Below, piece by piece: positions 10,209-64,000 of a DNA stretch of 64,000 nt. Below the pieces are notes generated by a model. That model was given only the letters and a program-made list of their open reading frames with translations. It did not search any database and was not told where the DNA came from. The DNA is from an uncultured cyanobacterium (GTDB lineage Bacteria; Cyanobacteriota; Cyanobacteriia; Cyanobacteriales; Nostocaceae). Location of the stretch: positions 4,160,001-4,224,000 of the forward strand of contig OY970166.1 in NCBI GenBank assembly GCA_963706595.1. Reading direction: 5' to 3'. Every line of letters starts with the position of its first letter. Position 1 is the stretch's first letter. The translations under genes and the position numbers were made by a program.

Positions 10209-10270
10209 TTAGTCATTAGTCATTAGTCATTGTTAGGATTTTCGAGTTTTGATTCGCTTGTAGAGACGCG

Positions 10271-10483: not shown

Positions 10484-10498
10484 GAGTCTCAGCAATTT

Positions 10499-12457: not shown

Positions 12458-12546
12458 GGGTCCTCAAAACAATCCAAATTATAGCAACCGCCAAGGAGGT
12501 TAAGACATAAACGGATAATCAAACTTAGACACCATTCGGGTTTTAA

Positions 12547-12585
12547 CCCACTCCCTACTCCCTACTCCCTACTCCCTACTCCCCA
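12547..12585. repeat. Heptamer STRR (CTCCCTA)n within a dispersed repeat
   Basis: About 5 tandem copies. Confidence 0.8.
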
Positions 12586-12702
12586 ACTATAATCATTAAT
12601 TGTCCGCCGTGGTGACTGTAAATGAACCACGGTTTTTTGTGGTCAGATAAAGAATGGCAATTTTATACTACAATAGTTAGTTGACCTTCTTTAGCAAGCA
12701 CT

Positions 12703-46335: not shown

Positions 46336-47730
46336 TTAGTTTTTCTGAATTCCATAACACAAACGACCAATTAACCAATTATTATCTTCACTATTATTTG
46401 ATTTTCCAGACTGTAGTATTTCTGTTCTATTTTTCAATCCAATGAAAAACTCCTCTATACCCTGAGTCTTTGTCCCATCTTGTTCATTACTTCTTGCTTC
46501 CCAGTCCCACTCTTTCCACCAAATAGGCGTTTGTAACCTTTGAGCAAAAATATCAAATTTAAACTTATAAACACCCGATTCGGGAAACTTGTTAGGCTCA
46601 ATTAATGCCGAGAAATTTAATTTATTTTCCTGAATCTGCCAATCTTGTAATTGAAAAGCAGTATTAATATCTGAACTATTCATAACTTTGAATTTTTTTT
46701 CAAATTCATCAAATTTTTCCACATCGACTTTTGAATTAATCAAACTTTTGTCAGTATCAATAAGCAAACTATATTTAGCCGCATAAAAAGGGAGAGTATA
46801 ATTAATTGTCAAACTTTCCTCTTGTCGATTGTCTATTTGCAAAAGTTCACCAGGATAATTATCTTTAGTAACAGAAACTCCATTTTTAACCAAAGAAACA
46901 GGTCGGTTCACACCTGGAACTGTTATTGTTGGTAAAGTTTCTAGACTTGAGACACCATTAATTATATTTTCTGGATGAAAAATCATCAAATTACTATTAA
47001 CCATCAATTGTTGTGAATCATTCTTTTTTAAATAATCAAAATAATACTGAATATCACGATATGGACCAACAAACAGAACGTAAAATGGTCTGAATTTCTC
47101 CGGTTCTTTTCCAGAAGAATACGCAAAAGTTTTGAGTTTATTTAGCTCTTGTACATATACAGTCCCATTAAACTCACTTTTTATCGCCCAAATTCCCACT
47201 GCATAATCCTTTCTATCTAGGTTAAAATAAATATCTTGGATTTTTTTGGTTAGCCTAGTCACATCACCGCTATTTTGCTCTAAATCCGTAACTATAACCG
47301 TCATTCTTTCCTCATCTTTTTTGGGAGGAATAATCGCAGCATCAATGGGGCTAGATACAGCTTTAAATTTTGTATTACTACCATCATAAAATACAGGCGC
47401 TCCGGCATAACTATAATATTCACCTCCTGTAATTTTTTGGTTTGGATTATCCAGACGATAGTATTCAACTGGTAATTTACCTATTAATTCAAAGGCATTT
47501 CTAATACTATTTAAAGCTTTCACATAATTAGTCTTTCCATCTCTCACATACCCCAGCATTGAGCCACTACCATCAACATAAATTCCTACATTGAGATTGT
47601 CAGATTTAGAAAGATTACTTTGATTGAATGCCGGAATTTCACAGGTTAATTTATCCTTAACTGCCACTGGATTGCAAGCTGTTAAAACAGTTATTACAAA
47701 TCCTAAAAAAAACCATCTAAATTGCATCAT
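46336..47730 (-). CDS. Putative lipoprotein with divergent vWA (MIDAS) domain
   Basis: From ATG 47730: lipobox VLTAC; IYVDGSGSM (DxSxS) and VIVTD. Confidence 0.7.
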   Translation of the reverse strand: MMQFRWFFLGFVITVLTACNPVAVKDKLTCEIPAFNQSNLSKSDNLNVGIYVDGSGSMLGYVRDGKTNYVKALNSIRNAFELIGKLPVEYYRLDNPNQKITGGEYYSYAGAPVFYDGSNTKFKAVSSPIDAAIIPPKKDEERMTVIVTDLEQNSGDVTRLTKKIQDIYFNLDRKDYAVGIWAIKSEFNGTVYVQELNKLKTFAYSSGKEPEKFRPFYVLFVGPYRDIQYYFDYLKKNDSQQLMVNSNLMIFHPENIINGVSSLETLPTITVPGVNRPVSLVKNGVSVTKDNYPGELLQIDNRQEESLTINYTLPFYAAKYSLLIDTDKSLINSKVDVEKFDEFEKKFKVMNSSDINTAFQLQDWQIQENKLNFSALIEPNKFPESGVYKFKFDIFAQRLQTPIWWKEWDWEARSNEQDGTKTQGIEEFFIGLKNRTEILQSGKSNNSEDNNWLIGRLCYGIQKN

Positions 47731-48095
47731 TTTGTTTCCTGAAGAAATTGAGAACTTATGAATCAGAAGGGACAAGCAAGAAACCAGGAGAAAAAACCCC
47801 TAAATAAATTCAGAGTTTTCCCACGAAAATGCCTTTTTGCTATCACTATGTGTCCTGAAAATTTTTCTTAACTTTATTAATAATTAAATTTTAAAGGATT
47901 TAAGCCTGTGGAAAGAAGTCAAAAAATATTTCTTTCCTTTAGCTCCTGCCTTGATTGGGTAAAGATTTTTAAGTAAATGTACGGTAGTTTTAATTCTTAT
48001 AAAAAAAGGATGATAAAAGTATATCAAAAAATACTAGCGATAGCTTTAAGCACGATGTTAAGACTCTGGATACAGAACAACAATAAGGAGAGCTA

Positions 48096-48569
48096 ATGAA
48101 GCCGTGGGAAATAATTAGGATCATCATTTTTAACGTTATTGGTGCTGCACTAATGTTTTTGGGGCAGCGTCTCATCTATGAAAATCAAATCATACCCATT
48201 CAAAAAGTCCCCCTTGATACTTGGCTTGGTGCTGACTATACCACAGCCGCACTGATCATGTTTGGAGTTTGTCTGTTGTCCACGATGATTTGGTGTCTCA
48301 TTGCCGCAGTCAGTAAGTTTACTGATAGTAGAAATGCTGGGAGTTGGATGTTGTTTTGGTGGTTGTTAGGACTTTTACCCATAGCCAGCATTGGTTTTAC
48401 AGTGTTTTACATTAACCGCAGCGACGAAGCCCAGTTTTCGCTGATGGGATTTTTCCTTTTAGATGCTATCTGGCTGTATTGGTTCAGCACCGCCACTAGT
48501 TCTCCTGAAGCCGTGAAATATATTCCACCAGGAGCTTTTTTTATCCGTCATAAGCTGATGGGAGATTAA
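48096..48569 (+). CDS. Hypothetical 4-TM membrane protein, first gene of the tubulin/actin operon
   Basis: AAGGAG SD; four hydrophobic helices; 3 bp from next gene. Confidence 0.8.
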   Translation: MKPWEIIRIIIFNVIGAALMFLGQRLIYENQIIPIQKVPLDTWLGADYTTAALIMFGVCLLSTMIWCLIAAVSKFTDSRNAGSWMLFWWLLGLLPIASIGFTVFYINRSDEAQFSLMGFFLLDAIWLYWFSTATSSPEAVKYIPPGAFFIRHKLMGD

Positions 48570-48572
48570 TAA

Positions 48573-50072
48573 ATGTCAATTTATGTGATTGGAATTGGTG
48601 GTACTGGCGCTAAGTGCATTGAAGCTGTAATTCAATTAGCATCCATAGGACTTTTTGGCGAAGAAACCCTGAATTTATTGTTTGTTGATGCTGATGAAAA
48701 TAATGGTAATTTAGAACGGGCATTAAAAAGCCTAAAAATTTATCAAGATTGCCAAAATTTAGGTCTTGCTGATAAACATCCCTGGATGAAAACCAAAATT
48801 GAGTCCTTTGGTTTATGGTCGCCTTTTGCCAACACCAGCGTCAATAAAAACCTTAGCTCATTCTTTGAATATAATATTCTCAAAGATGATGAATCAGCAT
48901 TAGGAAATTTATTTGATGTTCTTTATACTTCAGAAGAACGCGATGCTAATTTAGACGTGGGTTTTCGTGGTCGCCCTGCTATTGGTGCGGCGGTGATGAG
49001 TCAGGTAAAACTTGATTCTTTAGACCATGACTCATGGGGACAACTAATGAGTCAACTGCAAAAAGACACTGGAGGAGGTAAACGCCCCAAAGTATTTTTA
49101 TGTGGCTCAATTTTTGGTGGTACAGGGGCTTCAGGATTACCAACTATTGGCCGTTTAATTCATAATAAGTTGGAAACTCTGCAAATTAGAACTAAAGTTG
49201 ATATTGGTTGCTTATTTGTTTTACCTTATTTTGGTTTTACTCCTACTTTGGGAGAAAATGCAGAAACAGTCTATGCTCGTTCTGAACAATTTTTATTAAA
49301 CACAGAAGCAGCACTGCGTTATTATGGCAGTCAAGCCCAAGACAGTTTTGACACTGTATATCTGTTGGGAAATCAAAACTTATCTCCAGTTAAAGTTTTT
49401 AGTGTTGGTAAAAATACTCAACGCAATGACCCCCATTTTATTGAACTCTATGCGGCATTAGCAGCACGGCAATTTTTATTGAATACAACTTCCGAACAAA
49501 AAAAAGTGGTGTTGATGAATCGGGAGAATTTGAGAAATCTGATTTGGAAAGATATTCCCGACCAAAAAGCAGTTAACTCAGAGTTAGTTAATGCCACTCG
49601 TTTTGCTTTTATGTGGTTATCTAATATTGCCCCAGCGTTAGCGGAAGCTAAGAAAATTGGTGTGAAAAGCTTCCAAAAAGGTAATAGTTGGTTTGTGAAA
49701 TTCTTTCCTGACCGCATTGTTTTTCGCAACAATCAAAGACAAGAAATAGATTTTAATGATCCAGAACAGCAAAATGCTATAGAAACAATTACTGTCTGGT
49801 GTCAAGATTATTTACGTTGGCTGTCATTAGTTCATCAATGTGCTGGTGAAAATATTCAATTATTCAATGCTCAACATTTCAGTAATAGTAAGCTGAATCC
49901 TCAGCATTTATCAGATTTAATTAGTGGCTTAGGTGACAGTCGAGATCAAAACCAGAAATCTCAGGACACAGTACAAAAACTCAAAGAACGTTTGCATCCT
50001 CCAGCTATCAGTCTGCCCAATCAAGGCATATTGGGACTGTCTAAAGCTTTATATCTTGTTTGTCGGTTGTAG
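48573..50072 (+). CDS. Divergent FtsZ/tubulin-superfamily GTPase (Tubulin_2-like)
   Basis: VIGIGGTG, GFRGRPAIG, signature loop GSIFGGTGASG. Confidence 0.85.
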   Translation: MSIYVIGIGGTGAKCIEAVIQLASIGLFGEETLNLLFVDADENNGNLERALKSLKIYQDCQNLGLADKHPWMKTKIESFGLWSPFANTSVNKNLSSFFEYNILKDDESALGNLFDVLYTSEERDANLDVGFRGRPAIGAAVMSQVKLDSLDHDSWGQLMSQLQKDTGGGKRPKVFLCGSIFGGTGASGLPTIGRLIHNKLETLQIRTKVDIGCLFVLPYFGFTPTLGENAETVYARSEQFLLNTEAALRYYGSQAQDSFDTVYLLGNQNLSPVKVFSVGKNTQRNDPHFIELYAALAARQFLLNTTSEQKKVVLMNRENLRNLIWKDIPDQKAVNSELVNATRFAFMWLSNIAPALAEAKKIGVKSFQKGNSWFVKFFPDRIVFRNNQRQEIDFNDPEQQNAIETITVWCQDYLRWLSLVHQCAGENIQLFNAQHFSNSKLNPQHLSDLISGLGDSRDQNQKSQDTVQKLKERLHPPAISLPNQGILGLSKALYLVCRL

Positions 50073-50086
50073 AAGGAAAGTTAATT

Positions 50087-53000
50087 ATGACCAGTGCATA
50101 TACTACCAATCAATCTGCTTTGTTGCTACCCAAACTCAAAGATGATTGTGATGTCAAGTCTGGGAATCCCGGGATTTGGGATTCTCAAGCCCCAAAAGCT
50201 TTTAATGATGTCGCCTCCAGCTTAGATTACAAAGCACCGGGAGAAGTTAAAAGTGTTAGTTCTGTTCCCACGATTTGGGCGCGTCCTTTATCAATGGAAA
50301 TGGCATTACACAATGATGCTTATCCGATTCGGGAACAAATGATCATTCAATGGCAAGGAATGTTAGCGGCTTTAGCATTAGCAGAAGTACGCGGTTTTCC
50401 GATTAAAGCGGAACTTTTGGAACTGGGAACGAAAAAGGATAGTCACGTTTTTGCCCGTTCTCTGTATGAACTTTTACCTGATCCAGTTAACACCCTTTAT
50501 ACGTTCAATAATAATAAACATCCTTGGGAAGATTTATATGTCTTTACTTGGAAGAATCAACCTATAGGGATGAGTTCTCCTAGTACCTTGGTTGTACCTT
50601 CAGAAGAAGGCATCTGGGACGGTTTACCTTGGTGGGATAGTAATATATTACAGTTGCGATCGCCTCATAATTACCTTAACGACACAGAAAAAGCCCAACT
50701 AGCATTTTGGTTAGATAACCTCCGCAGAGAAATTAGAAGATATAACGGTCAAAGTAAAGCAATTGACCGCATTGTTGGCTTAGTCAATGGCTTTATTAAC
50801 AGCTTAGGTGTGACAACTACACCTAACTTTCAATTTAGTGATAATCCTGCCTACTTTGAAGTAGAAATCAACCGAGGCGCGTTAACTGCACTCAATTTAC
50901 CTGTTAAAGTTGAGTCTAGGGAATCTAATGTGAGGATTGTTCCCAGTTTAGTTAAACCAAATGTTCCCCCACTACTGATAATTGATCCCGCCATTGCGAC
51001 CGCTTGGAATGAACCACCGCAGAACATTTGCGTTTATGAAGGTAAAAATTTAGCAGCTTTTCGTCCTGAAGATTTAGAAACCTGGAACCGGAGTAGAAAA
51101 GTAATCTGTCTGGAATCGAAAGATTTATTTTTACCAGACTTGAAATTTATTGATCAAGAAGGAATTTTACCAGGGGCTTTACTTCCCGAAGGAACTCAAA
51201 GCTTGGTCTTTAAAAATAGGAATATTACCCCTTTAATTCCTTTGAATCCGATTTTGTTAAATTACTTCACCCCAGAAGATTTAACCAAAAAGATTAAACT
51301 CCAACTGGTTAATAATGGTGCTGGCGGTTCACAAGTTCGGGTAAGTTTAACCTTACCTTTATATGGTGTTAAAGGTGGTAAAGTACCGCAAAACTTCTTT
51401 TTAGTTAAAGACTATCCTTTGCTAGAAGAAAACATCATTTACCAAGTACCTGTTTTAGAGGTATGGCCTGACTTCCGTGCTGAAGGTTGGAAAGAATATT
51501 ACGGCTTTTACTACGATGCTGAATATGGGGAAGAAACATTTCAAGTCAGTTTCCCCAATGCGAAAGATATTCATATTTTTAAAGAACGTAAAGGTTCTTA
51601 TCAAACAGTACAGCTAGAGGAATTTCCAGCATTTATTGAGTGTAAAGACATTTATACCAATACTGTTGGATTAATCCTATTAGCTACTCCAGAAGAAATT
51701 TCTCCAGTCGGAAACTGGGTAGTTGGTGTTGACTTTGGAACTTCTTTTACTAACGTATATGTCAACAAAAATGATAAAGTTACAGAAAGACTAAATCTAG
51801 AAAATCTGCATCGTAAAATTACTTACGTGTTGGTGGAAACTAGATTTCCAGTATTGTTTGAATACTTTATTCCCGAAAGCTTTATTCCCATAGATAAACC
51901 TTTCCCCATGTCTACTGTATTAACAAGGAAAGGCAGCAAAAATGCCAATGAAGACCAATTAAATCCAATTTTTGATGGTCGGCTGTATATTCCTGCTCGT
52001 AATCGCTTTGAGCCTCAACAGACATGGATTAGAACCAATCTTAAATGGGACACTATTAACTTAACCGATAATCAACTTTTTCTCAAACACCTGGCGCTAC
52101 ATATTACTGCGATCGCAGCTAAAAATGGCGTAAAAAATATTCAATGGTCTTTATCATTTCCATCTGCTTTCTCAGCAAAACAAGAACAAAATTATGCCAA
52201 GAATTGGCAGAAAATAACCAAAGAAATAGAAGCTAAGTCAAGTATTAAACACCAGAGTCCCGCCAAAGATGACCCCACTTATTTCCGTACAGAAAGTTTA
52301 GCATTTGCTCAATACTTTGCTGAATACGAAGATGAAAATCTTGTCAATACAACTTGTATTGATATGGGTGGTGGAACATCAGATATTTCCATTTGGCAGG
52401 ATGATGAGCTAGTTCATCAATGTTCAGTTGAATTAGCAGGTCGTGATTTATTCTCTCAATTCATTAAAATTAATCTTAATTTTCTCAAGAAGTTAGATAT
52501 CAATCCTGATGAGTGGAAAACACTGAACAAAGAAGAAGCTTTCAATGCCAAACTCGATGTATGGATGCGTCTAGAAGCCGCTAATTGGTTAGAGAAAAAA
52601 CGAGATTTATTAGAAGAAGATAAAGACTTTCAAGGACTGCTGCGTTTAATGGCAATAGGTGTATCTGGCTTATACTTTTATGTTGGTCAGATTCTTTCTG
52701 TTCTACACAAAGAGGATAAATATACTCTTGATGAAATTACTCCAGTGTATATAGGTGGTAATGGTTCGCGTTTGTTGCATTGGTTGGCTGAAGGTGGTGA
52801 ATTTGATAAAAATTCAGAAATTAATGGTTTATTAAGTCGAATGATGAGTGTAGCTTCTGGTTTTACTGATACAGAAGAACTCACACGCCTAAGTCAAAAT
52901 CCCAAAGATGAAGCTGCTTGCGGTCTAGTTTTGAAAGATAAAAAACTCAAAGGGTTAAATAAAAAGGAAAAAGATCATGTAATTGCCGGCGAAGATTGTG

Positions 53001-53362
53001 AAATTGATGGTCAAATCTTTAGTTGGCAAGATCGGTTACAAATTAAAGCAAAAACAATTTCTAAATATCAAATTCCTGAACTAACTCAGCTAAGATTATT
53101 TCTTGATGCTTTCCATGCTAGTTTAGAAGACTTAGGAATTGATGGCATTAAACCTCTAGAAGGTTATGAATTTGAAAAAGAATATCCAGATGATCCAGAC
53201 CCTGACTATAATCAAAAACTATGGAAAGCTACAGCTAGGGAGTTAAAAGATTCTTTAAATTCTATTAAAGGTGATGTTGAAAATATCCGTGAAGAACCAC
53301 CATTCATTCTAGCGTTAAAAGCATTGCTCAAAGTTTTAGCTAAGAATTGGGCTGGTAAATAA
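50087..53362 (+). CDS. Large protein with C-terminal actin/Hsp70 (ASKHA) fold ATPase domain
   Basis: Phosphate-1 VGVDFGTSFT, connect-1 TESLAFA, phosphate-2 IDMGGGTSDIS, adenosine IGGNGSRL, connect-2 PKDEAACGL; ATG 50087 with AAGGA SD. Confidence 0.8.
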   Translation: MTSAYTTNQSALLLPKLKDDCDVKSGNPGIWDSQAPKAFNDVASSLDYKAPGEVKSVSSVPTIWARPLSMEMALHNDAYPIREQMIIQWQGMLAALALAEVRGFPIKAELLELGTKKDSHVFARSLYELLPDPVNTLYTFNNNKHPWEDLYVFTWKNQPIGMSSPSTLVVPSEEGIWDGLPWWDSNILQLRSPHNYLNDTEKAQLAFWLDNLRREIRRYNGQSKAIDRIVGLVNGFINSLGVTTTPNFQFSDNPAYFEVEINRGALTALNLPVKVESRESNVRIVPSLVKPNVPPLLIIDPAIATAWNEPPQNICVYEGKNLAAFRPEDLETWNRSRKVICLESKDLFLPDLKFIDQEGILPGALLPEGTQSLVFKNRNITPLIPLNPILLNYFTPEDLTKKIKLQLVNNGAGGSQVRVSLTLPLYGVKGGKVPQNFFLVKDYPLLEENIIYQVPVLEVWPDFRAEGWKEYYGFYYDAEYGEETFQVSFPNAKDIHIFKERKGSYQTVQLEEFPAFIECKDIYTNTVGLILLATPEEISPVGNWVVGVDFGTSFTNVYVNKNDKVTERLNLENLHRKITYVLVETRFPVLFEYFIPESFIPIDKPFPMSTVLTRKGSKNANEDQLNPIFDGRLYIPARNRFEPQQTWIRTNLKWDTINLTDNQLFLKHLALHITAIAAKNGVKNIQWSLSFPSAFSAKQEQNYAKNWQKITKEIEAKSSIKHQSPAKDDPTYFRTESLAFAQYFAEYEDENLVNTTCIDMGGGTSDISIWQDDELVHQCSVELAGRDLFSQFIKINLNFLKKLDINPDEWKTLNKEEAFNAKLDVWMRLEAANWLEKKRDLLEEDKDFQGLLRLMAIGVSGLYFYVGQILSVLHKEDKYTLDEITPVYIGGNGSRLLHWLAEGGEFDKNSEINGLLSRMMSVASGFTDTEELTRLSQNPKDEAACGLVLKDKKLKGLNKKEKDHVIAGEDCEIDGQIFSWQDRLQIKAKTISKYQIPELTQLRLFLDAFHASLEDLGIDGIKPLEGYEFEKEYPDDPDPDYNQKLWKATARELKDSLNSIKGDVENIREEPPFILALKALLKVLAKNWAGK

Positions 53363-53379
53363 AACACTTGCTTTAAAAG

Positions 53380-53404
53380 TGGGCGATATATTCATATTCG
53401 CCCA
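53380..53404 (+). other. Intra-operon stem-loop
   Basis: TGGGCGATAT...ATATTCGCCCA without a T-tract. Confidence 0.45.
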
Positions 53405-53446
53405 AATTATATTAAAGTCAGTAAATCAACTATAAGGAGGTTAAAA

Positions 53447-54259
53447 ATGGAAAAAAATTCTAATAAATGTCCAGTTTGTCACACTGAATTTAGTGAGCAG
53501 GAAAAAAGAGAAATAGTAATAAACAATATAAATAAAATAAATAACTTTAAGATAAATTGTGAAAAACTAAACGAAGAAAATAAAAACTTGAGAATTCACA
53601 TAGAGGAATTAAACCAAAAAATACAAGAACTTCAAGAACAATTAATCAAGTATGACAGTCCTGATGATTCAGTAGTTCAATATAATGATGTAGAAATACA
53701 AGAACTTCTACAGAAATTAAAACATCCACTGGTTATTGAGGCTATTAAAAACATAATTCATAATCATGTTGAAAGCCAAGATAATTCAATATCTAATCAA
53801 GTTGGAGAAGATCTCAAAAATCAAAATGTAGATGAAATAATAACTGATGATGTAGAAAATAATTCTCCTGAGTCTGATACAGCTATAACATTACACGAAC
53901 AGGAATTAGTCAAGAATTATCAAGATTCAAATTTCGATTTTCAGCAATTTATAATTAGGGTCTCTGAACCAGAGCAAAGTCAAACTAATCGTTGGGGTGG
54001 TAGTAAAGAAGCAACAAGTTTTAAATATAATCGCCAAGGTAATTATTGGATAGTCAATATGGATAATGGTTTGTATATCGTGCCTCAAAAAAAGTTTAAG
54101 ATTAATGAATATAGCCAAGAAACATTAACCTCAACTTTTGATTGTCGTAACTATCAACCAGGAAAATCAGAAGATTTTGTTTTAATAAAACCTGGGAAAG
54201 TAATTGCTATAAGCGCAGAGGAATGGCAATTAGTAGAACGTGGTATCCTACACTTTTAA
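53447..54259 (+). CDS. Hypothetical coiled-coil protein with C-terminal repeat-family domain (copy 1)
   Basis: AAGGAGG SD; CPVC, coiled coil, GNYW...KPGKV...WQLVERGILHF. Confidence 0.8.
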   Translation: MEKNSNKCPVCHTEFSEQEKREIVINNINKINNFKINCEKLNEENKNLRIHIEELNQKIQELQEQLIKYDSPDDSVVQYNDVEIQELLQKLKHPLVIEAIKNIIHNHVESQDNSISNQVGEDLKNQNVDEIITDDVENNSPESDTAITLHEQELVKNYQDSNFDFQQFIIRVSEPEQSQTNRWGGSKEATSFKYNRQGNYWIVNMDNGLYIVPQKKFKINEYSQETLTSTFDCRNYQPGKSEDFVLIKPGKVIAISAEEWQLVERGILHF

Positions 54260-54269
54260 TCATTACATT

Positions 54270-55718
54270 ATGTTAAAAAGCAATTACATCAAATCTCTCC
54301 CTGTAGTTTTACTAATATCTCTGATGGTTGGGTGTGAACGTCCTCCCTTGGATTCCCAAAATAGTAATCCTACAGTTAAAATCAGTACATCTCCAATTGT
54401 TCAAGAGAAACCAGATAATTTAAATGCAGTTTTATCTGCATACAGTGAATTTAAGAACTCAATCACTAAGCTTAATTCTGAACTGAAAAATTTTGTAGTA
54501 GGGAATTTACAGCCAGACCAAGTAAATTTTAGCGAACCTAACAAAAAGCTAATTAAATTACAGGAATCTATTTTAGCTTTAAAAATACAGCTTAATGGCA
54601 TAAGTAATAATTCCGATATTAATCAATCTATTGATGATATAAATACAACAATTACAGATATTCAGAGAGTAATTAAACCAATAGAAAAAGGATTAAATTC
54701 TGCTGTTGTGCGTGAAGTTCAACAATTAATAGACCTGCAAAAAAATACAGGAATAGCTCCTACAGGTATTTTTAAAACCACTACACAGGAACAACTCGAA
54801 AAATTCCTTGTGCTAAGACTTGGAAATTTAGACCAGCAATTTAAAGAAATTGATAACCTTATTCAAAAAACAGAAAATATTTCCATTAATAACAATATTA
54901 TTAATCCTGATAGTCCAATTATCGCAAATTCTACGGCGGAAAATCAGGACGAAATTCTGATATCTAAATCAGCACTTGATAATATTTATAACCGGCTGAA
55001 TCTGACTGTGACTATTACCAGTTGTGGGTTTATTATCCTAGCTGGATTATTCGCATGGTTGATGTATAGGCTAAATCTCGTCGAAACCAGACTAAAATCT
55101 AGTAATTCCTCAAAAAATGAAACTCAATTAGGGAATATTAAAAATTATATTGAGAGCGAATTTACACAGATTGAACAGTATTTACAAAGTTTAGATACTA
55201 GGTTCAAAAATTTAGAAATATCTTCTCAAAATTATAGTTCACCAAATTATAAAGGTGAAAATAATCAATCCTATACTTCACAAAGTAACACAGCAACAAA
55301 TCATCCACAACCTAAAGTAGTAAATATTTCTCATTCTCAATCATCTACATCGAATAAAGAAACTCAGATAGTGACATTATATAATAATCAGCCTCGTTCT
55401 CTATCTGCAAATGCAATTACTGTGGCAGAAACTGATCACACAGTTGAACAACGTCGTATGGGTAGAACTGTTGCACCTATTTTAGAGGAAAATCAGCTAG
55501 GTAATTATTGGATAATTCAAGAAGGTCATAACGAATATCTTGTACCTAAAGGAAGTATTAAAATTAATGAATATAACTATGAAACAATATCAAGCTGTTT
55601 TGAATGTTTAGCATATAATCCAAATTATTCCAGTAATTTTATATTGTTAAAACTAGCAATAGTTTCATCTATAGGACAAAATTGGCAATTAATAGAACCA
55701 GGTGAATTACAATTTTAA
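54270..55718 (+). CDS. Putative lipoprotein with internal TM helix and C-terminal repeat-family domain (copy 2)
   Basis: Lipobox LMVGC, TM ITSCGFIILAGLFAWLMY, GNYW...WQLIEPGELQF; ATG 54270. Confidence 0.75.
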   Translation: MLKSNYIKSLPVVLLISLMVGCERPPLDSQNSNPTVKISTSPIVQEKPDNLNAVLSAYSEFKNSITKLNSELKNFVVGNLQPDQVNFSEPNKKLIKLQESILALKIQLNGISNNSDINQSIDDINTTITDIQRVIKPIEKGLNSAVVREVQQLIDLQKNTGIAPTGIFKTTTQEQLEKFLVLRLGNLDQQFKEIDNLIQKTENISINNNIINPDSPIIANSTAENQDEILISKSALDNIYNRLNLTVTITSCGFIILAGLFAWLMYRLNLVETRLKSSNSSKNETQLGNIKNYIESEFTQIEQYLQSLDTRFKNLEISSQNYSSPNYKGENNQSYTSQSNTATNHPQPKVVNISHSQSSTSNKETQIVTLYNNQPRSLSANAITVAETDHTVEQRRMGRTVAPILEENQLGNYWIIQEGHNEYLVPKGSIKINEYNYETISSCFECLAYNPNYSSNFILLKLAIVSSIGQNWQLIEPGELQF

Positions 55719-55732
55719 TCAACACAAATTAC

Positions 55733-56848
55733 ATGGAAATGCAAAATATTGAAAAGGTGGATTTTTCGGAAAATGAATTAATTATATTATATAATTATAT
55801 TCCCCGTCTAATTGAAAAATCTGCAATATTAGTTAATTTATCTCCTAGTTACTATACAAACGGTAAGCAGGAAATATTGCTGACAGAAGATACAAAAGGA
55901 AATTACTGGGTTATTGCAACTGATTATGATATTTATTGGCTGTTTCCCATTGCGACACTCAAGGGTAAATTTAACCACCATGTCAATGAAGCATTAAATC
56001 TATTATTTGAGTTTAAAAATTACGAAAATTCAGAAAATCGTGAATTTACGCTGAAAAAACCAGCTAAAGTTTATCCTGCGATTAGTCGGGAAGGTTGGAT
56101 ACTAGAATCAACAGGTTTTCTGGATTTTACTAATTTACGGTTATTATCTATTGAAACATCAAATGGCAACAGCAATAAAATACCATTAATACAGGAAAAT
56201 TCAACTTTACAGCTATCACAAAAAGAATTTGAGGAATATAGAAGTAAAGTTGAGGCGGAAATTAATCTATTAAAAATGCAAGTTCAACAGTTGACGGAAG
56301 CGCGAGAACAATTTAAAACCGAAATTAAAGAAATTAAGGATAGGTATTTTAGTTTAGAAACTCAACTACCAGCGACAGCAGAACACAATAGTTCTAGTAA
56401 TCATCAGGTTGAGAATACTCAAGAGGTAAAAATATCAAATCAGGATAATTCAATTAATATATCTACAGAATTAAATCTCACTTCTGAAGAATTACGAATT
56501 GTTGAAACATATAATTATAATCCTGTGATAATTTCACAGCAAGCGAAGCAAGTTTCTGAAACTACAACTAGTATTGAAAAGCGTAGTCAGGGTATTAATG
56601 ATACAGTTGTTTTAGAAAAACAATCTCAAGGTCATTACTGGTTGGTTGGTAAAGAGACATTATATTTAATGCCTAGACGAGGTTTCAAGATAAATCGCTC
56701 AACTGTAGATACTTTTAAAGCTTTATTTCAATTTCGAGGAAGTAAAGTTCCAAGTAAGTTTAAGTTAATCAAACCTGCTCAGGTAGCTATGATAATTAAT
56801 TCACAAACTTGGCAACTAACCGAGCGGGGAATTATTGAATTTGAATAA
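55733..56848 (+). CDS. Hypothetical protein with two repeat-family domains (copies 3, 4) around a coiled coil
   Basis: GNYW...KPAKV...WILESTGFLDF and GHYW...KPAQV...WQLTERGIIEF. Confidence 0.8.
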   Translation: MEMQNIEKVDFSENELIILYNYIPRLIEKSAILVNLSPSYYTNGKQEILLTEDTKGNYWVIATDYDIYWLFPIATLKGKFNHHVNEALNLLFEFKNYENSENREFTLKKPAKVYPAISREGWILESTGFLDFTNLRLLSIETSNGNSNKIPLIQENSTLQLSQKEFEEYRSKVEAEINLLKMQVQQLTEAREQFKTEIKEIKDRYFSLETQLPATAEHNSSSNHQVENTQEVKISNQDNSINISTELNLTSEELRIVETYNYNPVIISQQAKQVSETTTSIEKRSQGINDTVVLEKQSQGHYWLVGKETLYLMPRRGFKINRSTVDTFKALFQFRGSKVPSKFKLIKPAQVAMIINSQTWQLTERGIIEFE

Positions 56849-57191
56849 GCTTAAGTAAGTTGTTGAGAAAAATTTAATGTATATAAAAAGATATTAGCTG
56901 TTGCACTGTAAATTGGTGAAGGTGCGTTGCGCTTCGCGACAACACACCCTACTTAATTTGTCTTTAGATTGTCAGAAGTATTCGTGCTTACCTACTTATT
57001 TATATGAAGTATAATTTACGAAGTCTCAAACCTAAAACAGAAAAGCTGTTAGATAAACTCAAGGAACTGAAACTTCAACTGCAAGATTTATTTTTACCTA
57101 AAATAGGGGGGAAATGTGTACACAACCTATATTTATAGTAGAATTAAAGGCTTTATTGACTATTTTATCACAAAGGTGGGATTAATAACTA

Positions 57192-57926
57192 ATGTCTACA
57201 ATAAAGTTTGATGAACTTGTCCGCAGTTTTAATAATTTGAGACAACTTTGTTATCAGAATTTTGCCGTTAGAATAACTAATATAGAAGATTATCTATCTA
57301 CACTTACTGACCGAGTTATAGAGGGAAAGGTGATAGTTAATGGTAATTTTGAGGCAGAAAAAGTTAGCCGTGTGAATATTTCTGAGTCTCAGTTGGTGCA
57401 AGTTTATAATGATGTTCCTCAAGTTTTAGGGAAAAATTCTGTTGTTTTGGAATTAACTGCTAAAAGTTATCGTAATCTTCAACATGGTGAACCAATTTTC
57501 CTGGAAAATGATGAGAATGGTAAATATTGGATGATTACAACTGATATAGATCGGTTTTTTGTTGTGCCAAGTATGAATGTTAAATCAAATATACACAAAT
57601 TAAGAACTGTCAAAATGTTGTTTGATTTCTCTGGTGATGAGCCGTCAGCAGATAGTGATTTTATATTAATTGAACCTGCAAAAGTTTCTAGTCAAGCCAG
57701 TGGTAAGGAATGGAAACTAAAAGAAAGGGGGATTTTGGAATTTAAGAATGCTTTTTTGCCGAATCAAAATTTTCAAACAAATGTGGAAGATTCTAATTTA
57801 GAAATAAAAAAAATTGCTCAACAGTTAGATGATTTAAAAATTCAGTTCTATGAGTCGCAGCAAGAAAGAATAAAATTACAGTTGCAAGTTGAAGAAATAG
57901 CGAATAAGTTAAAATGGTTAGATTAA
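57192..57926 (+). CDS. Hypothetical protein with repeat-family domain (copy 5) and C-terminal coiled coil
   Basis: GKYW...EPAKV...WKLKERGILEF. Confidence 0.8.
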   Translation: MSTIKFDELVRSFNNLRQLCYQNFAVRITNIEDYLSTLTDRVIEGKVIVNGNFEAEKVSRVNISESQLVQVYNDVPQVLGKNSVVLELTAKSYRNLQHGEPIFLENDENGKYWMITTDIDRFFVVPSMNVKSNIHKLRTVKMLFDFSGDEPSADSDFILIEPAKVSSQASGKEWKLKERGILEFKNAFLPNQNFQTNVEDSNLEIKKIAQQLDDLKIQFYESQQERIKLQLQVEEIANKLKWLD

Positions 57927-57942
57927 TTTAGTTTTAATAAGC

Positions 57943-58044
57943 TATAGCGGTTATCAGTTAAGTGAGATGAACCCCACCCCCAACCCCCTCCCCGCAAGCG
58001 AGGAGGGGGCTATGATGTACTTCATTGAAGTGGATACCGCTATA
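57943..58044. repeat. MITE-like repeat
   Basis: TATAGCGGT...ACCGCTATA TIR; copy of 35795-35991. Confidence 0.8.
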
Positions 58045-58303
58045 ATCTCTATTTAATATCAATGTCAATGTCGCATGAATGAATATTTGTAATGGAGAAG
58101 GTCGCCAAGTGAAGAGGTTCAGAAATGATTTAGGACTGCTATAGGTTAGGTTGAGCAATGCAAAACCCAAAGTTGGCGAGGATGTTGGATTTCCCAAAGC
58201 CTCAACTCAACCTACTTTAATTATAAGTTGTAATTTAAATATGCGTTTTCGGTGAACTGTCGTAGAGAGCTTGTATACAATGTTTCTAGATTCGGTGGCA
58301 TTT

Positions 58304-60940
58304 TTACAATTTTAATTGTTCGTTTTGGAGAATTTCTGTGGCTTTTTCAGCCGTAAGTGGTCTGTAGAACAGAAAACCCTGGACATCCTCACAGTTGATG
58401 GATGCTAAAAAATCGAGTTCTTCTTGCTTTTCTACTCCTTCGGCGGTTAATCTTAATCCTAAACTCCTGCCTAAAGTGACGATCGCCTGGACAATATGAG
58501 CAACTTTCGCATCCTTTGTCAACCCGTGGATGAAAGACCTGTCAATTTTTAAATTGTGAAATGGTAACAGTTGTAGGCGCGAGAGTGAGGAATGACCAGT
58601 ACCAAAGTCATCAATGGAAATATGAACGCCCATTTGTTCTAAACTTTGCAACACTGTTCTAGTAAAATCTAAATCTTCAATAGCTGTAGTTTCTGTAATT
58701 TCTAATTCTAAAAAGTTGGGGTCTAAACCTGTCTGTTCTAAAATTTTAGCTACTGTCTCTACTAGTTTAGGTTGGCGGAACTGTTGAGGAGATAAATTGA
58801 CAGCAATAGTCAGAGGAGGAAATCCAGCTTTTTGCCAAGCTTTATTCTGAATACAGGCTGTCCGTAATACCCATTCGCCAATCTGGACTATTAATCCATT
58901 GGCTTCAGCCAGGGGAATGAAAACATTGGGCGCGACTAGTCCCAAATCAGGATGCTGCCAACGTAACAGCGCCTCCATACCAGTAATTTTTTTGCTATTA
59001 ATGTTGATCTTAGGTTGATAATATATCGTTAATTCTTGCTTTTCTAGGGCATGGCGCAAGCTTTTTTCTAAAGTTAGAAGTTCAGGATTTTTGGTATTTA
59101 GGGTATTGGTGTAGAACTGGTAGTTATTTCTGCCTTCATCTTTGGCATAATATAAGGCGGTATCTGCGTGCTGAATTAAAGTTTCGGCATCAGAGTTATG
59201 TTCATCAAGTAAGGCAATGCCGAGGCTGGCACTCACATAAAGTTCATGTCCATCCAGATAAAATACATCTTCTAAGGCTTTTAAAATTCTCTGTGCTACC
59301 TGTGAAACTTCTTCAAGATAATTCACGCGAGTTAGTAGGATAGTAAATTCATCACCCCCCCAACGGGCAAGAGTATCCCCGCTTCGGAGAGAGTTTTTCA
59401 ATCTTTCTGCCACATGTTGTAACAATCGATCTCCCAATGTATGACCCAATGTGTCATTGATGATTTTGAAACGATCCAAATCAAGAAACATCACAGCTAA
59501 ACTTTCCTGATTACGAACCGCGTTGGGTACGGCTTTTTCCAGCAGCTCATTAAATAACAACCGATTGGGTAATCCAGTGAGGAAATCATGAAGAGCCTGG
59601 AAGCGGATTTTGCCTTCGACCTGCTGACGCTGCCAAGCACCACTAATACTAGCTGCCATTGTCAAAAGTGTAGATTCTTCATGCTTTGACCAAAGGCGCT
59701 CTGTTGAACAATCTGCCAAGCCCAGATAACCCCAAAATTTTGCCTCTAGCCGCAAAGGTACTAGTAGCAGAGATTTTATACCGTCTCTGGAGAGTAATTC
59801 TCGCTCGCTGGGAGGAAATTCTTTTGTGAGTCCGTTAATAGATTCTCCACTAGAGAGAACAGCATACCAACGTCCTAATTCAGCAGATTGATAAGACTGA
59901 TTCTGCCAGTCTTGAAGAGAAGATTCAGTGTTGATGTTTGTCCATTCAAACTGGAGGCTAACTGCCATTTCCCCTGTTACTGAATGAAGATGATTACTAA
60001 AGACATAGACACGATCTACCTTGGCAGCTTTCCCCAACACAGCCAGAGCTTTGTGAATAGCGATTTCGTAGTTCATTTCTACTAGTAAATAATTGGCTGC
60101 TTCGGCAACTGCCTGTAGCAAGCGATCGCGTTGCTGGAGTTCGGCTTGGGCTTGTTTTTGCTCAGTAATATCCCTAGCAATAAAAGTTCTAATTAAGTCA
60201 CTTTCTGGCAGAAAATGTACTGATTGCTCAAAGATTTTTTGACCAACCTGCACTTCCCGGACAAAAGGATTTTTCTGGCGATTAGCAACTGCATTGAGTA
60301 ATCCTGTGAGGATAGGATGTTGTTTGCCCATTTGCTTGAGTTTGGGAAACTCCATAGATGCAGCTGGATTGAGATAAGTCACCCTCTCCTTGAGATCCAT
60401 CTCAATAATCGGATTGGGGATAAGTTCTGGGAAAGAAGCTAGGCGAGCTAAAGCTGTATTATTAGCTCCGTCAGAGCCAGGATCAATAATTAGAGTTTGA
60501 AAAGGATTGAGGGTGTTGACTTGGTTAGTCAGAAAATCAGACAGGTCTTCGGCTTCACAAGAGGCAAAAAATTCTGTTTCAGATAGGTTAGAAACAGCAT
60601 AATATTTAGCCTGAGCTTGATGGTCACCAAACACAATCACATCTCCATGCTTGAGGTTATGAGAGAAGGATTTATTCCCATTTACTAATAAGCCATTAGT
60701 ACTACCCTGTCCTGTGAAGTTACCATCTATAATCCAAAAGCCATATTGGTCAGTTTCTGGAAGAGTTACCCGTAATAAAATTGCATGTTGTCTAGATACT
60801 GAACGTGAACGCAGGACAATAGAGTTTTCACGATGCCGTCCTAAAGAATAAATAGCCTCGTGAAGGGGGATAGTCTGCCGTCCTCGCAAGTCTTGGATAA
60901 CTAACAAGTGGCGTATTTTTTCCCGCTCATTTCCTGACAT
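58304..60940 (-). CDS. FHA-PAS-GAF-GGDEF-EAL c-di-GMP signalling protein
   Basis: FHA LGR...SVSRQHA...STNG; WGGDEF; MEALLRW; DDFGTG. Confidence 0.92.
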   Translation of the reverse strand: MSGNEREKIRHLLVIQDLRGRQTIPLHEAIYSLGRHRENSIVLRSRSVSRQHAILLRVTLPETDQYGFWIIDGNFTGQGSTNGLLVNGNKSFSHNLKHGDVIVFGDHQAQAKYYAVSNLSETEFFASCEAEDLSDFLTNQVNTLNPFQTLIIDPGSDGANNTALARLASFPELIPNPIIEMDLKERVTYLNPAASMEFPKLKQMGKQHPILTGLLNAVANRQKNPFVREVQVGQKIFEQSVHFLPESDLIRTFIARDITEQKQAQAELQQRDRLLQAVAEAANYLLVEMNYEIAIHKALAVLGKAAKVDRVYVFSNHLHSVTGEMAVSLQFEWTNINTESSLQDWQNQSYQSAELGRWYAVLSSGESINGLTKEFPPSERELLSRDGIKSLLLVPLRLEAKFWGYLGLADCSTERLWSKHEESTLLTMAASISGAWQRQQVEGKIRFQALHDFLTGLPNRLLFNELLEKAVPNAVRNQESLAVMFLDLDRFKIINDTLGHTLGDRLLQHVAERLKNSLRSGDTLARWGGDEFTILLTRVNYLEEVSQVAQRILKALEDVFYLDGHELYVSASLGIALLDEHNSDAETLIQHADTALYYAKDEGRNNYQFYTNTLNTKNPELLTLEKSLRHALEKQELTIYYQPKININSKKITGMEALLRWQHPDLGLVAPNVFIPLAEANGLIVQIGEWVLRTACIQNKAWQKAGFPPLTIAVNLSPQQFRQPKLVETVAKILEQTGLDPNFLELEITETTAIEDLDFTRTVLQSLEQMGVHISIDDFGTGHSSLSRLQLLPFHNLKIDRSFIHGLTKDAKVAHIVQAIVTLGRSLGLRLTAEGVEKQEELDFLASINCEDVQGFLFYRPLTAEKATEILQNEQLKL

Positions 60941-61352: not shown

Positions 61353-61760
61353 AAACAATCAATTCCTTACTCTGAAAGCTGCTCCATAAAAAAGGGCGAT
61401 TAAAACTACCAAAGCTAAAAACTTTAAAGCAAGTATTTCTAGAAATATGAGCAGAAAAATCAAATATGGCACTGTTTCTCAAAGAAGCACAGATAAGTCT
61501 TTTGCAGCAATATTGTTTGAGATAGAAGAATTCAAAACTAATAATCAAGGGAAAATAGCAGGGATTGATTTAGGCGTAAGTAGTTTAGTAACTGGATTTG
61601 ATGGAAAGAACTGCTACAAAGGTAAAGCAGTTCAGGTAGTAGCCAGAGTTTACGAGAGCATATCTCATATCAGACCAGATTTGTTTCATGAAAAATTAGT
61701 ATAATTTAGCAACTATCTTAAGAATGGACTTTTGGAAATCAAGCACTGCGACTGAAAAAC
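61353..61760 (+). pseudogene. tnpB: Degraded IS200/IS605-type tnpB fragment
   Basis: GRLKLPK, TVSQRSTDKSFAAILFE and KIAGIDLG spread across frameshifts and deletions. Confidence 0.75.
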
Positions 61761-61898: not shown

Positions 61899-64000
61899 AT
61901 GATGACATCTCCAGAAACGGTTATATGGCTACAAGAACGCACACCTTTAGGAATTCTCTCACCTGGGGTGCTAGATGCGATCGCTCAAGTCATTGAGGAA
62001 AAATTTTTCCCAGCCGGAAGTAGTTTAGTTAGTGAAGGTACTGCCCCAGAAGCACTTTACATTCTGCAACAAGGGCAACTCGAAAGCAAGACCAGCAATC
62101 AAAATAACCCCGCCTTAGCCTGTGGTCTTCTACCTGGGGCAATTGTTCAACTCAAGGAATTACTCTTAGATGAGTTAACCCCAAGCACAATTACCACTAT
62201 AACTGAATGTCAGTTCTGGGTGATATCTGCTGCTCAATTTCGCGCATTAGTTGCCCAATACCCAGAAATCGCTCAGGCTTTTTCTCGTTTACTAGCTCAA
62301 GAATTAGCCGAGGTGACATCTGCACTTGGCTATGAACAAGAACGGGCTGTAGCCTTACGACCATATTTAGTTACCAAAGCCCAACGAGGAATTGTCGGTA
62401 CAAGTCGCTATGCTGTGCGTCTGCGTGAGCAAATTAGAACAGCAGCAAGCACAGGTGAATCTGTAGAAATTTTTGGGGAACCTGGCTTAGAAAAAGACAA
62501 TATAGCCGCCCTAATTCACTACGGTTCACCGAAAAGGCGAGAAGCGATTATTAAGGTCAATTGTGGAATTCTCCAAACGAGCGGCATGGATTTATTCGGT
62601 CGCGCTGGTGGTAAGCCCGGACTGTTAGAATGGCTAGGGTCAGGCACTATTGTTTTTAACAACATCCAAGAATTGCCTCCAGAATTATTACCGTCTGTAG
62701 CACAGTTACTAAAAACAGGCAAATATACTCCCGTGACTCGTTCGGGAGAACCAGCTGCCCAACCTCGCCCCTGTAAAGCCCGTGTGATCATTGTTTCCGA
62801 AAAAACACAATCGGACATTGAACAGTGCGTTGGTTGTGTGATTAAAGTGCCGCCGCTACGGGTACGGAAAACAGATATTCAAGCCCAAGTAGAATATTAC
62901 ACCAGTCTTTATATTCGCGGGAAGGGTCTTTCTAAACCGAAAATTACCCCAGAAGCTTTGCGGCGCTTACAGTCTTACGATTTTCCCGGTAATCTCAAAG
63001 AATTAAAAAATCTTGTGGAACGGGCGATTGTGCAGGTAGGTGATGGACGGGAGTTAACAGAAGAAATATTTTGGTCAGCCCAAACGCAGAAAAAACAATT
63101 ACGTTTGAATCTGTTGAATGCTTATCCTGGGTTGCGGAAATTTCTGCGGAGTCCTTGGTGGCCAGACCGGATTAATTATGGTTTTACTTTCGCCGCGTTT
63201 GCTGTGATGATCGCCATTTTATTTATGGGACCGCAAACACGCGATCGCAATTTCATTTTAAACTTCTTTTGGGCTTGGTGGTGGCCTTTCTTTCTCTTTC
63301 TCTTCCCTTTCTTAGGTCGGATCTGGTGTTCTGTCTGTCCTTTTATGATCTACGGCGAAATTACCCAAAAACTTTCCCTCTGGCTGTTTCCGAGACAACT
63401 CAAAGGCTGGCCGAGACAACAAGCTGAAAAATGGGGCGGATGGTTCATTTTTGGACTATTTACCCTAATTTTCCTCTGGGAAGAACTCTGGGATTTACAA
63501 AATACTGCCTACCTTTCCGCTTGTTTACTACTGTTAATTACAGCTGGGGCGATGATTTTCTCAGCCATTTTTGAACGGCGGTTTTGGTGTCGGTATCTTT
63601 GCCCCATTGGCGGAATGAATGGTTTATTTGCTAAACTCTCGATGACGGAACTCCGGGCGCAGCAAGGTATCTGTTCGGCTTCTTGCAATACTTATCAGTG
63701 TTACAAAGGTGGTCCCGAAAAGGGCGAAGGAATGGAAACTAATGGCTGTCCGGTATATTCCCACCCCGCACAGTTACAAGATAATCGCGACTGTGTATTG
63801 TGTATGACTTGTCTCAAAGCTTGTCCCCATCGTTCCGTTGAGTTCAATTTACGTCCCCCGGCGATTGAACTGTGGACAACTCATACACCCCACAGCTATG
63901 AAGTGGCGTTGTTGTTTTTGCTATTGGGTGGAGTGTATCTGCATCGCTTACCAGAGTTACAGTCTTGGTTAGGTTTAGAAATCGATTTAAGTTTGTTTTG
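61899..64000 (+). CDS. cNMP-binding + sigma-54-activator-like AAA + membrane 4Fe-4S protein (partial, runs off the window end)
   Basis: Manual translation MMTSPETVIWLQERT...; GEPGLEKD, YDFPGNLKEL, GRIWCSVCPF, RFWCRYLCPIG, CVLCMTCLKACP. Confidence 0.88.
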   Translation, partial: MMTSPETVIWLQERTPLGILSPGVLDAIAQVIEEKFFPAGSSLVSEGTAPEALYILQQGQLESKTSNQNNPALACGLLPGAIVQLKELLLDELTPSTITTITECQFWVISAAQFRALVAQYPEIAQAFSRLLAQELAEVTSALGYEQERAVALRPYLVTKAQRGIVGTSRYAVRLREQIRTAASTGESVEIFGEPGLEKDNIAALIHYGSPKRREAIIKVNCGILQTSGMDLFGRAGGKPGLLEWLGSGTIVFNNIQELPPELLPSVAQLLKTGKYTPVTRSGEPAAQPRPCKARVIIVSEKTQSDIEQCVGCVIKVPPLRVRKTDIQAQVEYYTSLYIRGKGLSKPKITPEALRRLQSYDFPGNLKELKNLVERAIVQVGDGRELTEEIFWSAQTQKKQLRLNLLNAYPGLRKFLRSPWWPDRINYGFTFAAFAVMIAILFMGPQTRDRNFILNFFWAWWWPFFLFLFPFLGRIWCSVCPFMIYGEITQKLSLWLFPRQLKGWPRQQAEKWGGWFIFGLFTLIFLWEELWDLQNTAYLSACLLLLITAGAMIFSAIFERRFWCRYLCPIGGMNGLFAKLSMTELRAQQGICSASCNTYQCYKGGPEKGEGMETNGCPVYSHPAQLQDNRDCVLCMTCLKACPHRSVEFNLRPPAIELWTTHTPHSYEVALLFLLLGGVYLHRLPELQSWLGLEIDLSLF

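Follow-up and report, generated by a model that had tools for sequence, protein, structure and literature searches.

A repeated new domain that may dock diversifying coiled-coil proteins onto a conserved tubulin-like and Hsp70-like core in cyanobacteria

We analysed a 64,000-nt stretch of DNA from an uncultured Nostocaceae cyanobacterium (contig OY970166.1, positions 4,160,001 to 4,224,000; this whole stretch is called the window, and coordinates count from its first letter). Four adjacent genes of the window, here g1 to g4, encode five copies of an unnamed domain of about 120 residues, downstream of the genes for a small membrane protein, an FtsZ/tubulin-like protein and a 1100-residue ATPase with a predicted Hsp70/actin-type fold. 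The arrangement recurs across cyanobacteria, with a conserved core of three genes and a faster-evolving array of domain genes behind it. We propose, with a probability of roughly 45%, that the new domain docks the diversifying coiled-coil proteins onto the tubulin-like/Hsp70-like core.

Five copies of a new domain family in four adjacent genes

The initial annotation, made from the sequence alone, had reported five diverged copies of a domain of about 120 residues in four genes. Alignment, phmmer searches against shuffled sequences and a window-wide search with a hidden Markov model (HMM) bear this out: a domain of about 121 residues occurs exactly five times, at the positions first given. The other copies are 31-36% identical to the first, and 16 columns are invariant among the five when aligned. 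All 20 ordered pairs score between 26.5 and 72.1 bits in phmmer, against at most 11.0 bits for the best of 200 shuffles per target. An HMM built from the five copies and run over 516 stop-to-stop frames (six frames, whole window) returned only these copies (domain E 1e-46 to 2e-54), and the next-best match had an E value of 0.4.

The four genes lie on the plus strand and differ in how they carry the domain. g1 (53447-54259, 270 aa) begins with a CPVC motif, continues with a heptad-rich stretch and ends with a domain copy (DNA 53894-54256). g2 (54270-55718) also has its copy at the C-terminus (DNA 55356-55715); it is 482 aa long from the ATG at 54270, which is used here, the open reading frame (ORF) lister having placed a GTG start at 54240. 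Besides the domain it encodes a lipoprotein-like signal, a heptad-rich region and one membrane helix at about residues 243-271. g3 (55733-56848, 371 aa) carries a copy at both ends (DNA 55766-56128 and 56480-56842) with a heptad-rich linker between them, a layout shared by its orthologs (P0002-P0013). g4 (57192-57926, 244 aa) consists of a 63-residue N-terminal piece, a domain copy (DNA 57381-57743) and a heptad-rich C-terminal tail.

The copies had also been described as always lying next to a coiled coil. A heptad-rich stretch does lie beside every copy (residues 28-71 of g1, 49-136 and 281-324 of g2, 157-212 of g3, and 15-50 and 191-241 of g4), as placed by a crude heptad scan that also fires twice within the g3 domain and is therefore not specific. 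Sub-threshold Pfam and NCBIfam matches of coiled-coil type (bZIP_1, TolA_bind_tri, SMC, Rad50, prefoldin) coincide with these stretches.

At the N-terminus of g1-type proteins, a CxxC motif is found in 43 of the 67 first array proteins of the related loci described below, mostly as CPxC-X~12-CxxC. This four-cysteine start, seen in the first array genes of loci L004-L074, resembles a zinc ribbon; g1 of the window and of L001, L002 and L003 keeps only the first cysteine pair. The only PADLOC matches are of LmuB coiled-coil or zinc-hook regions to the g1 N-terminus. A Rad50-type zinc hook, matched there by Pfam below the cut-off (E 1.9e-4), was rejected since the relatives show the four-cysteine pattern instead.

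The domain was initially called unnamed, and it is: it has no family in Pfam, NCBIfam, PADLOC or PHROGs, a profile search of PDB sequences gave nothing meaningful, and the ESM Atlas offered nothing beyond 'hypothetical protein' clusters, recognised below the mark taken as reliable. A search of a library of 1.84 billion sequences with the five-copy profile found 996 representative proteins at E of at most 0.001 (694 at E of at most 1e-10), each standing for a cluster at 50% identity. All members with an organism name are cyanobacterial, and all are called hypothetical. Across 70 diverse members, five columns are invariant and eleven nearly so. We conclude that the five copies are paralogs of a new alpha/beta domain family of about 120 residues.

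An AlphaFold model of the domain from the 70-sequence alignment reached a mean predicted local distance difference test (pLDDT) score of 90.4 and a predicted template-modelling score (pTM) of 0.84. From the N-terminus it shows two short helices, one strand and a further short helix, followed by eight strands interspersed with two short helices. Foldseek found no match to this model at E of at most 0.001 in the PDB (best E 0.14; template-modelling (TM) score at most 0.21 among the matches listed) and none in BFVD. One BFVD row, an ART-PolyVal-like protein of an uncultured phage (A0A7M1RZK7_1), has a TM score of 0.47 over 117 columns with E 0.65. No structural relative of the modelled domain was detected in the PDB or BFVD, and comparison with these two does not establish a new fold.

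The domain behaves like a mobile module. Of the 208 stored family members, 101 contain one copy, 99 two, seven three and one four; 99 carry the domain at their extreme C-terminus, 65 at both ends and 44 elsewhere. Pfam was run on 81 of 142 representatives, picked by eye among the longer ones (at least 399 aa); WD40 repeats were found in six, coiled-coil-type or small matches only in eight, and none in 67. Ten long array ORFs from the related loci were scanned as well, with WD40 in six and FGE-sulfatase in one. All seven of these are g4-type proteins, with a short N-terminal piece, the domain, and a variable module in the place of the tail. The FGE-sulfatase fusion (L039, 18156-19973) carries a single domain copy at residues 55-176 (PF03781, E 9.5e-58). 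In work on cyanobacterial conflict systems, modules of this type are discussed as hypervariable sensors (PMC8195603; papers are cited throughout for the passages drawn on here).

A conserved core of a membrane protein, a tubulin-like protein and an Hsp70-fold ATPase

The array is the downstream part of a tightly packed plus-strand gene set (48096-57926) with successive intergenic gaps of 3, -13, 84, 10, 14 and 343 nt. Its first gene (48096-48569) encodes a 157-aa membrane protein with hydrophobic stretches at about residues 3-28, 48-76 and 83-107 in a hydropathy scan. The second (48573-50072) encodes a 499-aa FtsZ/tubulin-like protein that matches Pfam Tubulin_2 (PF13809) with E 8.3e-8 and 32.3 bits (cut-off 27), over profile positions 155-310 only. 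The Tubulin_2 model is tied to the FtsZ-like families of Makarova and Koonin (PMC9871819), and the Gloeothece homolog is named a 'tubulin-like' domain-containing protein in RefSeq.

The third gene (50060-53362) encodes the 1100-aa ATPase. The initial annotation had called it Hsp70/actin-like, and its predicted structure agrees: by this model, the protein carries the two-lobed nucleotide-binding fold of the Hsp70/actin (ASKHA) superfamily in its C-terminal half, with the N-terminal 545 residues or so outside the fold match. The AlphaFold2 model, built from a 69-sequence alignment (pLDDT 85.3, pTM 0.73), gave 313 Foldseek matches in the PDB at E of at most 0.001, led by the nucleotide-binding domains (NBDs) of DnaK, Hsc70 and BiP together with MreB and MamK. 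Target-normalised TM scores are 0.50-0.56 for the DnaK, Hsc70 and BiP NBDs and about 0.5 for MreB and MamK. At the sequence level, Pfam and NCBIfam gave only sub-threshold fragments of FtsA, MreB, EutA and Hydantoinase_A (the Pfam FtsA, MreB and EutA fragments at residues 752-805) and no HSP70 family match at E of at most 1. In a PDB profile search FtsA, at E 0.15, was the sole match. On this sequence evidence the protein does not fall among the Hsp70 chaperones proper, which are marked by an HSP70 family match and a substrate-binding domain.

Many cyanobacteria have homologs of the ATPase, nearly all of which carry the annotation 'hypothetical'. One homolog of 1364 aa (P0316) has an N-terminal Trypsin_2 domain and a VMAP-M1 domain (PF19963), both of which are parts of vWA-MoxR conflict systems. 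This homolog is known from one metagenomic sequence only, and misassembly could account for the fusion.

On the minus strand upstream of the core lies a divergent gene (46336-47775) for a 479-aa protein that starts like a lipoprotein and contains a conserved VDGSxSMLGY motif, in which D68, G69 and S72 are invariant in 20 homologs. The protein may be vWA-like: we take the invariant D-G-S-x-S to recall the vWA MIDAS site, a likeness that Pfam, the PDB and the Atlas did not confirm. It has no match in Pfam, in the PDB (by sequence and by a 20-sequence profile) or among usable named Atlas entries.

Domain genes are linked to the ATPase across cyanobacterial genomes

A genome scan with the ATPase alignment yielded 151 confirmed matches, from which 78 loci were kept. 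Their titles are all cyanobacterial except that of L033, a 2385-nt contig (JACCVJ010000648.1) of a metagenome-assembled genome (MAG) labelled Tatlockia (Legionellales), in which a 57%-identical ATPase fragment is followed by a domain copy; the contig is probably cyanobacterial and mis-binned. A single full-length ATPase ORF is present in 60 of the 78 loci, and 54 of these extend at least 1.5 kb downstream. The other 18 loci, partial ones that include frameshifted or contig-end cases, were set aside, and several of them also have downstream copies.

The linkage of domain genes to the ATPase, suggested by the window, holds across these genomes. In 53 of the 54 informative loci a same-strand domain copy begins within 2 kb of the ATPase stop codon, and all 53 have the order membrane protein, tubulin-like protein, ATPase and then one to ten domain copies. 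Apart from two in L059, all domain matches within 10 kb on either side of the ATPase lie downstream on the same strand. Upstream, among the 55 loci with at least 2.5 kb of sequence, the tubulin-like gene stands next to the ATPase in 53 and somewhere in the locus in all 55, and the membrane-protein gene is kept in 54. A homolog of the divergent 479-aa gene is found in 40 of the 52 loci with at least 5 kb upstream.

The number of copies varies widely. Among the 40 loci with at least 8 kb downstream, one has no copy, four have one, one has two, six have three, eight have four, five have five, five have six, four have seven, five have eight and one has ten; over all loci, not only these 40, the total is 285 copies in 220 ORFs. 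The four single-copy loci (L049 from Thermosynechococcus, L055 from Thermosynechococcaceae, L060 from Altericista and L078 from Acaryochloridaceae) have no second domain protein within 10 kb.

The cluster can also be plasmid-borne. It is found on a 47.5-kb mobilizable plasmid of Gloeothece PCC 7822, and in Picosynechococcus plasmids the layout is kept at 30% ATPase identity, with two downstream proteins that match the domain HMM at E of about 1e-5. Both plasmid versions include a homolog of the 479-aa protein. On one Picosynechococcus plasmid (L080, 15729-16976), a 'TM2 domain-containing' protein has two weak domain-HMM matches (E 4e-4 and 1e-5), and a TROVE-domain gene lies about 4 kb beyond it.

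Seven loci have a second ATPase paralog inside or after the array that lacks the first 280-350 residues or so (L002, 15873-18032; L006, 16783-18975; L013, 12713-14983; L051, 15762-18140; L053, 10255-12744; L071, 21720-23263; L059, 1029-3272). In L002, L006 and L059 a g4-type gene follows directly, its domain copy starting 183-195 nt past the end of the second ATPase. Some relatives have this paralog at the site of the 343-nt g3-g4 gap (56849-57191), and no remnant of it was detected in the window. Other N-truncated paralogs (about residues 282-334 to 1100), in L066, L075, L077 and L069, come with neither a tubulin-like gene nor a domain copy in the DNA covered and appear to form a separate branch of the family. 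Calothrix anomala (L016) has two full-length ATPases (3914-7159 and 9992-13261) about 2.8 kb apart, with the membrane-protein and tubulin-like genes between them and a single array after the second.

The array evolves faster than the core

The divergence of the copies had been read as a sign of a variable layer, a reading that comparison of the loci upholds. Each copy of the window has a positional ortholog with 70-79% identity in a close relative; the copies are old paralogs because the identity between them within the window is only 33-36%. Over all loci, 63 of 272 copies are most similar to another copy of the same locus, with identities of up to 95%, and these are recent tandem duplications.

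Among eleven close relatives, identity to the window protein is 66-87% for the ATPase and 75-86% for the tubulin-like protein, against 27-70% for g1 to g4. The arrays are mosaic: L001 has window-like g2 and g3 and lacks such a g1 or g4; L003 has a window-like g1, g4 and g2 domain and lacks such a g3; and L009 and L010 share window-like g3 and g4. The domain is always better conserved than the rest of its own protein, as in g2 compared with L003 (77% versus 23%). Across 1225 pairs of loci, first-copy identity follows ATPase identity with a Spearman coefficient of 0.63, compared with 0.84 for the tubulin-like protein against the ATPase, and where the ATPases are at least 75% identical the median identity of the first copy is only 53% (range 25-95%). 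These sequence comparisons support the array as a faster-evolving, mosaic layer relative to the core.

Proposed docking on the core and alternative functions

We propose that the domain would serve as the common handle of array proteins that are otherwise dissimilar, being coiled-coil or membrane-spanning here and WD40 or FGE-sulfatase proteins elsewhere. It would dock each of them onto the core of membrane protein, tubulin-like protein and ATPase, the docking site probably being the C-terminal two thirds of the ATPase. A single conserved machine driven by nucleoside triphosphates (NTPs) could thereby be coupled to a changeable set of arms, with g1 as the near-universal first adaptor and the later genes as an expandable layer. 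We infer physical docking and the role of the machine on top of the observed repeat, gene linkage, ATPase fold and array evolution.

Four lines of evidence (the single-copy loci, the near-universal first gene, the pairs of truncated ATPase and domain gene, and complex prediction) point to a partner in the core, most simply the ATPase. In the single-copy loci the nearest 10 kb contain no other domain protein to pair with, and the core should therefore supply the partner. The truncated second ATPase and the g4-type gene of L002, L006 and L059 seem to travel as a unit, for which the first 345 or so ATPase residues seem dispensable. Docking also agrees with the correlation between first-copy and ATPase identity, with the module-like behaviour of the domain and with a layout kept down to 30% ATPase identity on Picosynechococcus plasmids. 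Complex prediction for ATPase residues 345-1100 with the g1 domain gave weak support, with a score of 0.50 (runs 0.54, 0.50 and 0.49) compared with 0.00 for the best of three controls; contacts agreed by at least 81% between runs, and the pLDDT of the partner was at least 80. In the benchmark for this score, 116 of 157 solved complexes and 2 of 215 mismatched pairs reached the pass mark, and only 18 of the solved complexes, together with both mismatches, passed with scores of at most 0.60; these counts are only roughly valid here because our own alignments were used as input.

Several points weigh against docking on the core. The prediction gave no interface, and a pass of this kind is rated more often wrong than right unless the pair was likely beforehand. 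It covered ATPase residues 345-1100, leaving outside it residues 1-344, the tubulin-like protein, the membrane protein and domain-domain pairs. None of the core proteins carries the domain, so that only adjacency and this weak prediction favour the ATPase over another part of the core. Linkage was counted from the side of the ATPase, and the share of domain genes away from any such ATPase falls outside the count; at least one WD40-fused member, P0083, belongs to the MAG that contains L012 and is found there on another contig. One locus, L034, has a full-length ATPase followed by 10 kb with no copy at all. The interaction with the ATPase suggested by the initial annotation is left with weak predicted support, above that of the controls, and no interface.

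The main rival to docking on the core is a homotypic adaptor role, which we rate as possible and rather unlikely. The domain would then be an association module with a logic like that of the effector-associated domains (EADs) of NTP-dependent conflict systems (Kaur et al. 2020 and 2021): the g1 copy would recruit the copies on variable proteins, two-copy proteins such as g3 would bridge into a lattice, and another part of g1 would contact the core. EADs are described as homotypic adaptors common to core and effector proteins; they, too, occur in cyanobacteria, and in them a small shared domain links a constant NTPase core with variable WD40 and FGE/FGS-type proteins (PMC7159879, PMC8195603). 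The ATPase homolog P0316, with its Trypsin_2 and VMAP-M1 domains, adds to the likeness. However, our domain is alpha plus beta in its model, whereas the helical EADs are likened to Death-like domains (PMC7159879). The presence of the domain both on the near-universal g1 and on the variable WD40 and FGE-sulfatase array proteins fits homotypic association, as does the half or so of stored members with at least two copies, often flanking a coiled coil at both ends; it is harder to reconcile with the four single-copy loci, with the absence of the domain from the NTPases themselves and with the weak support for a complex with the ATPase. No EAD family of Pfam matched at E of at most 1; Pfam presumably holds EAD models, and the VMAP-M1 family from the EAD work was confirmed to be present in the library.

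It is distinctly unlikely, in our estimate, that the domain itself recognises a variable external ligand, for example a protein of an invader or a component of the envelope, its divergence then mirroring the diversity of targets. The fast evolution of the copies relative to the core and the mosaic arrays of close relatives would be expected under such recognition. Yet the domain is more conserved than the flanking regions of each protein, its five invariant and eleven near-invariant columns fit a common partner better than diverse ligands, and classic recognition modules (WD40, FGE-sulfatase), where they occur, accompany the domain and do not take its place.

Least probable, and very unlikely, is a nucleotide-exchange factor like GrpE, built of a coiled coil and a beta domain and opening the nucleotide cleft of the Hsp70-like ATPase: the Hsp70-type fold of the neighbour, the tight linkage, the heptad-rich regions beside a small strand-rich domain and the weak predicted docking on the part that contains the NBD all fit it, but a single exchange factor would not explain one to ten divergent copies per locus, their position at either or both termini, or the members with a membrane helix, WD40 or FGE-sulfatase. 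The GrpE resemblance put forward initially was not recovered by any method. GrpE (PF01025) was absent from the Pfam and NCBIfam matches of g1 to g4 at E of at most 1, no GrpE chain appeared in the PDB profile search at E of at most 10, and no GrpE entry was among the best 50 Foldseek rows from the PDB; these negatives exclude the domain from the GrpE family.

Comparison with described systems

By analogy, the logic of the cluster appears closest to that of EADs and of the tubulin- and HSP70-containing GTPase systems of Kaur et al. 2020 (PMC7159879). The latter, the DO-GTPase/GAP1 systems, likewise bring together proteins of the tubulin and HSP70 families, zinc ribbons, membrane components and linked genes that vary. 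They are described from firmicutes and actinobacteria, where tubulin and HSP70 form distinct themes (PMC7159879), whereas here both NTPases occur together and the named loci are cyanobacterial apart from L033. No GTPase or GAP1 family was matched in Pfam or NCBIfam by the eight proteins encoded between 46336 and 57926.

The FtsZl1-vWA operons of Makarova and Koonin 2010 share with the cluster a divergent FtsZ-like protein of Tubulin_2 type, membrane proteins, lineage-specific genes and, possibly, a vWA-like neighbour (PMC2875224). FtsZl1 proteins are described there as about 1000 aa long, with a long coiled coil and a helical C-terminal domain; the tubulin-like protein of the window, at 499 aa, has half that length. 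The supplement of that paper gives the Trichodesmium FtsZl1 as Tery_1707 at 2.60 Mb, and the Trichodesmium locus found here lies at 1.85-1.87 Mb and is distinct from it. Length and supplement entry together argue against assigning the tubulin-like gene to FtsZl1. The main text of the paper contains the term 'hsp70' 0 times and gives no Hsp70-like partner (PMC2875224).

Like FtsZ and FtsA, the cluster sets a gene for a tubulin-superfamily GTPase beside one for an ATPase of the ASKHA fold and a membrane anchor, and FtsA and MreB are the best sequence-level matches of the ATPase. These matches lie far below the family cut-offs, however, the ATPase has an extra N-terminal region of 545 residues, and Hsp70 NBDs match it structurally at least as well as MreB does. 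We know of no array of proteins with a shared domain for FtsZ/FtsA.

We regard organisation of the cell envelope or cytoskeleton and an immunity-like conflict system as about equally open roles for the cluster. Tentatively, and as a reading less likely than not, one may go further and see in it an undescribed machine of many cyanobacteria. In it a membrane anchor, an FtsZ-like GTPase and a giant ATPase of Hsp70 fold would use the docking domain, for which no structural relative was detected, to mount coiled-coil, WD40 and FGE-type arms that diversify rapidly and recombine; such an immune-like sensing array built on cytoskeletal NTPases would be distinct from the DO-GTPase and MoxR-vWA systems described so far. 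No description of the cluster was found in full-text literature searches, outside which fall the supplements of the eLife papers, which could list it.

The domain, with its 996 representative clusters, no name, and no solved relative or detectable structural neighbour in the PDB or BFVD, marks a conserved and sometimes plasmid-borne cluster that pairs a tubulin-superfamily protein with an Hsp70-fold protein. If docking is true, it offers a handle to pull down and image an NTP-driven assembly that is so far uncharacterised and that is present in cyanobacteria of ecological importance, among them Trichodesmium, Microcystis, Crocosphaera and Nostocales that form blooms, and could be used to test whether bacterial cytoskeletal NTPases were recruited into diversifying, immunity-like systems. 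If the array is a structural scaffold instead, its proteins would be a new class of coiled-coil partners for the cyanobacterial cytoskeleton.

Genomic surroundings of the cluster

The GC content is 0.30-0.33 over 52-58 kb of the window, compared with 0.38-0.47 in the flanks. Scans of 47700-58400 for promoters and terminators gave site counts no higher than in shuffles and are uninformative on the operon boundaries.

Judged by eye from the translations, the flanking genes are PBP1A-like (43710-46010) and FHA/PAS/GGDEF/EAL-like (58304-60940). Among the eleven close relatives, the former adjoins the cluster only in L003 and the latter only in L010, so the surroundings of the cluster differ even among close relatives. 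Further downstream, and also read by eye, an 85-aa ORF with a GIDLG-type motif (61447-61704) looks like a transposase-related fragment, and an ORF that runs off the end of the window (61899-63998) resembles a regulator in its N-terminal part and also has a membrane part rich in cysteine.

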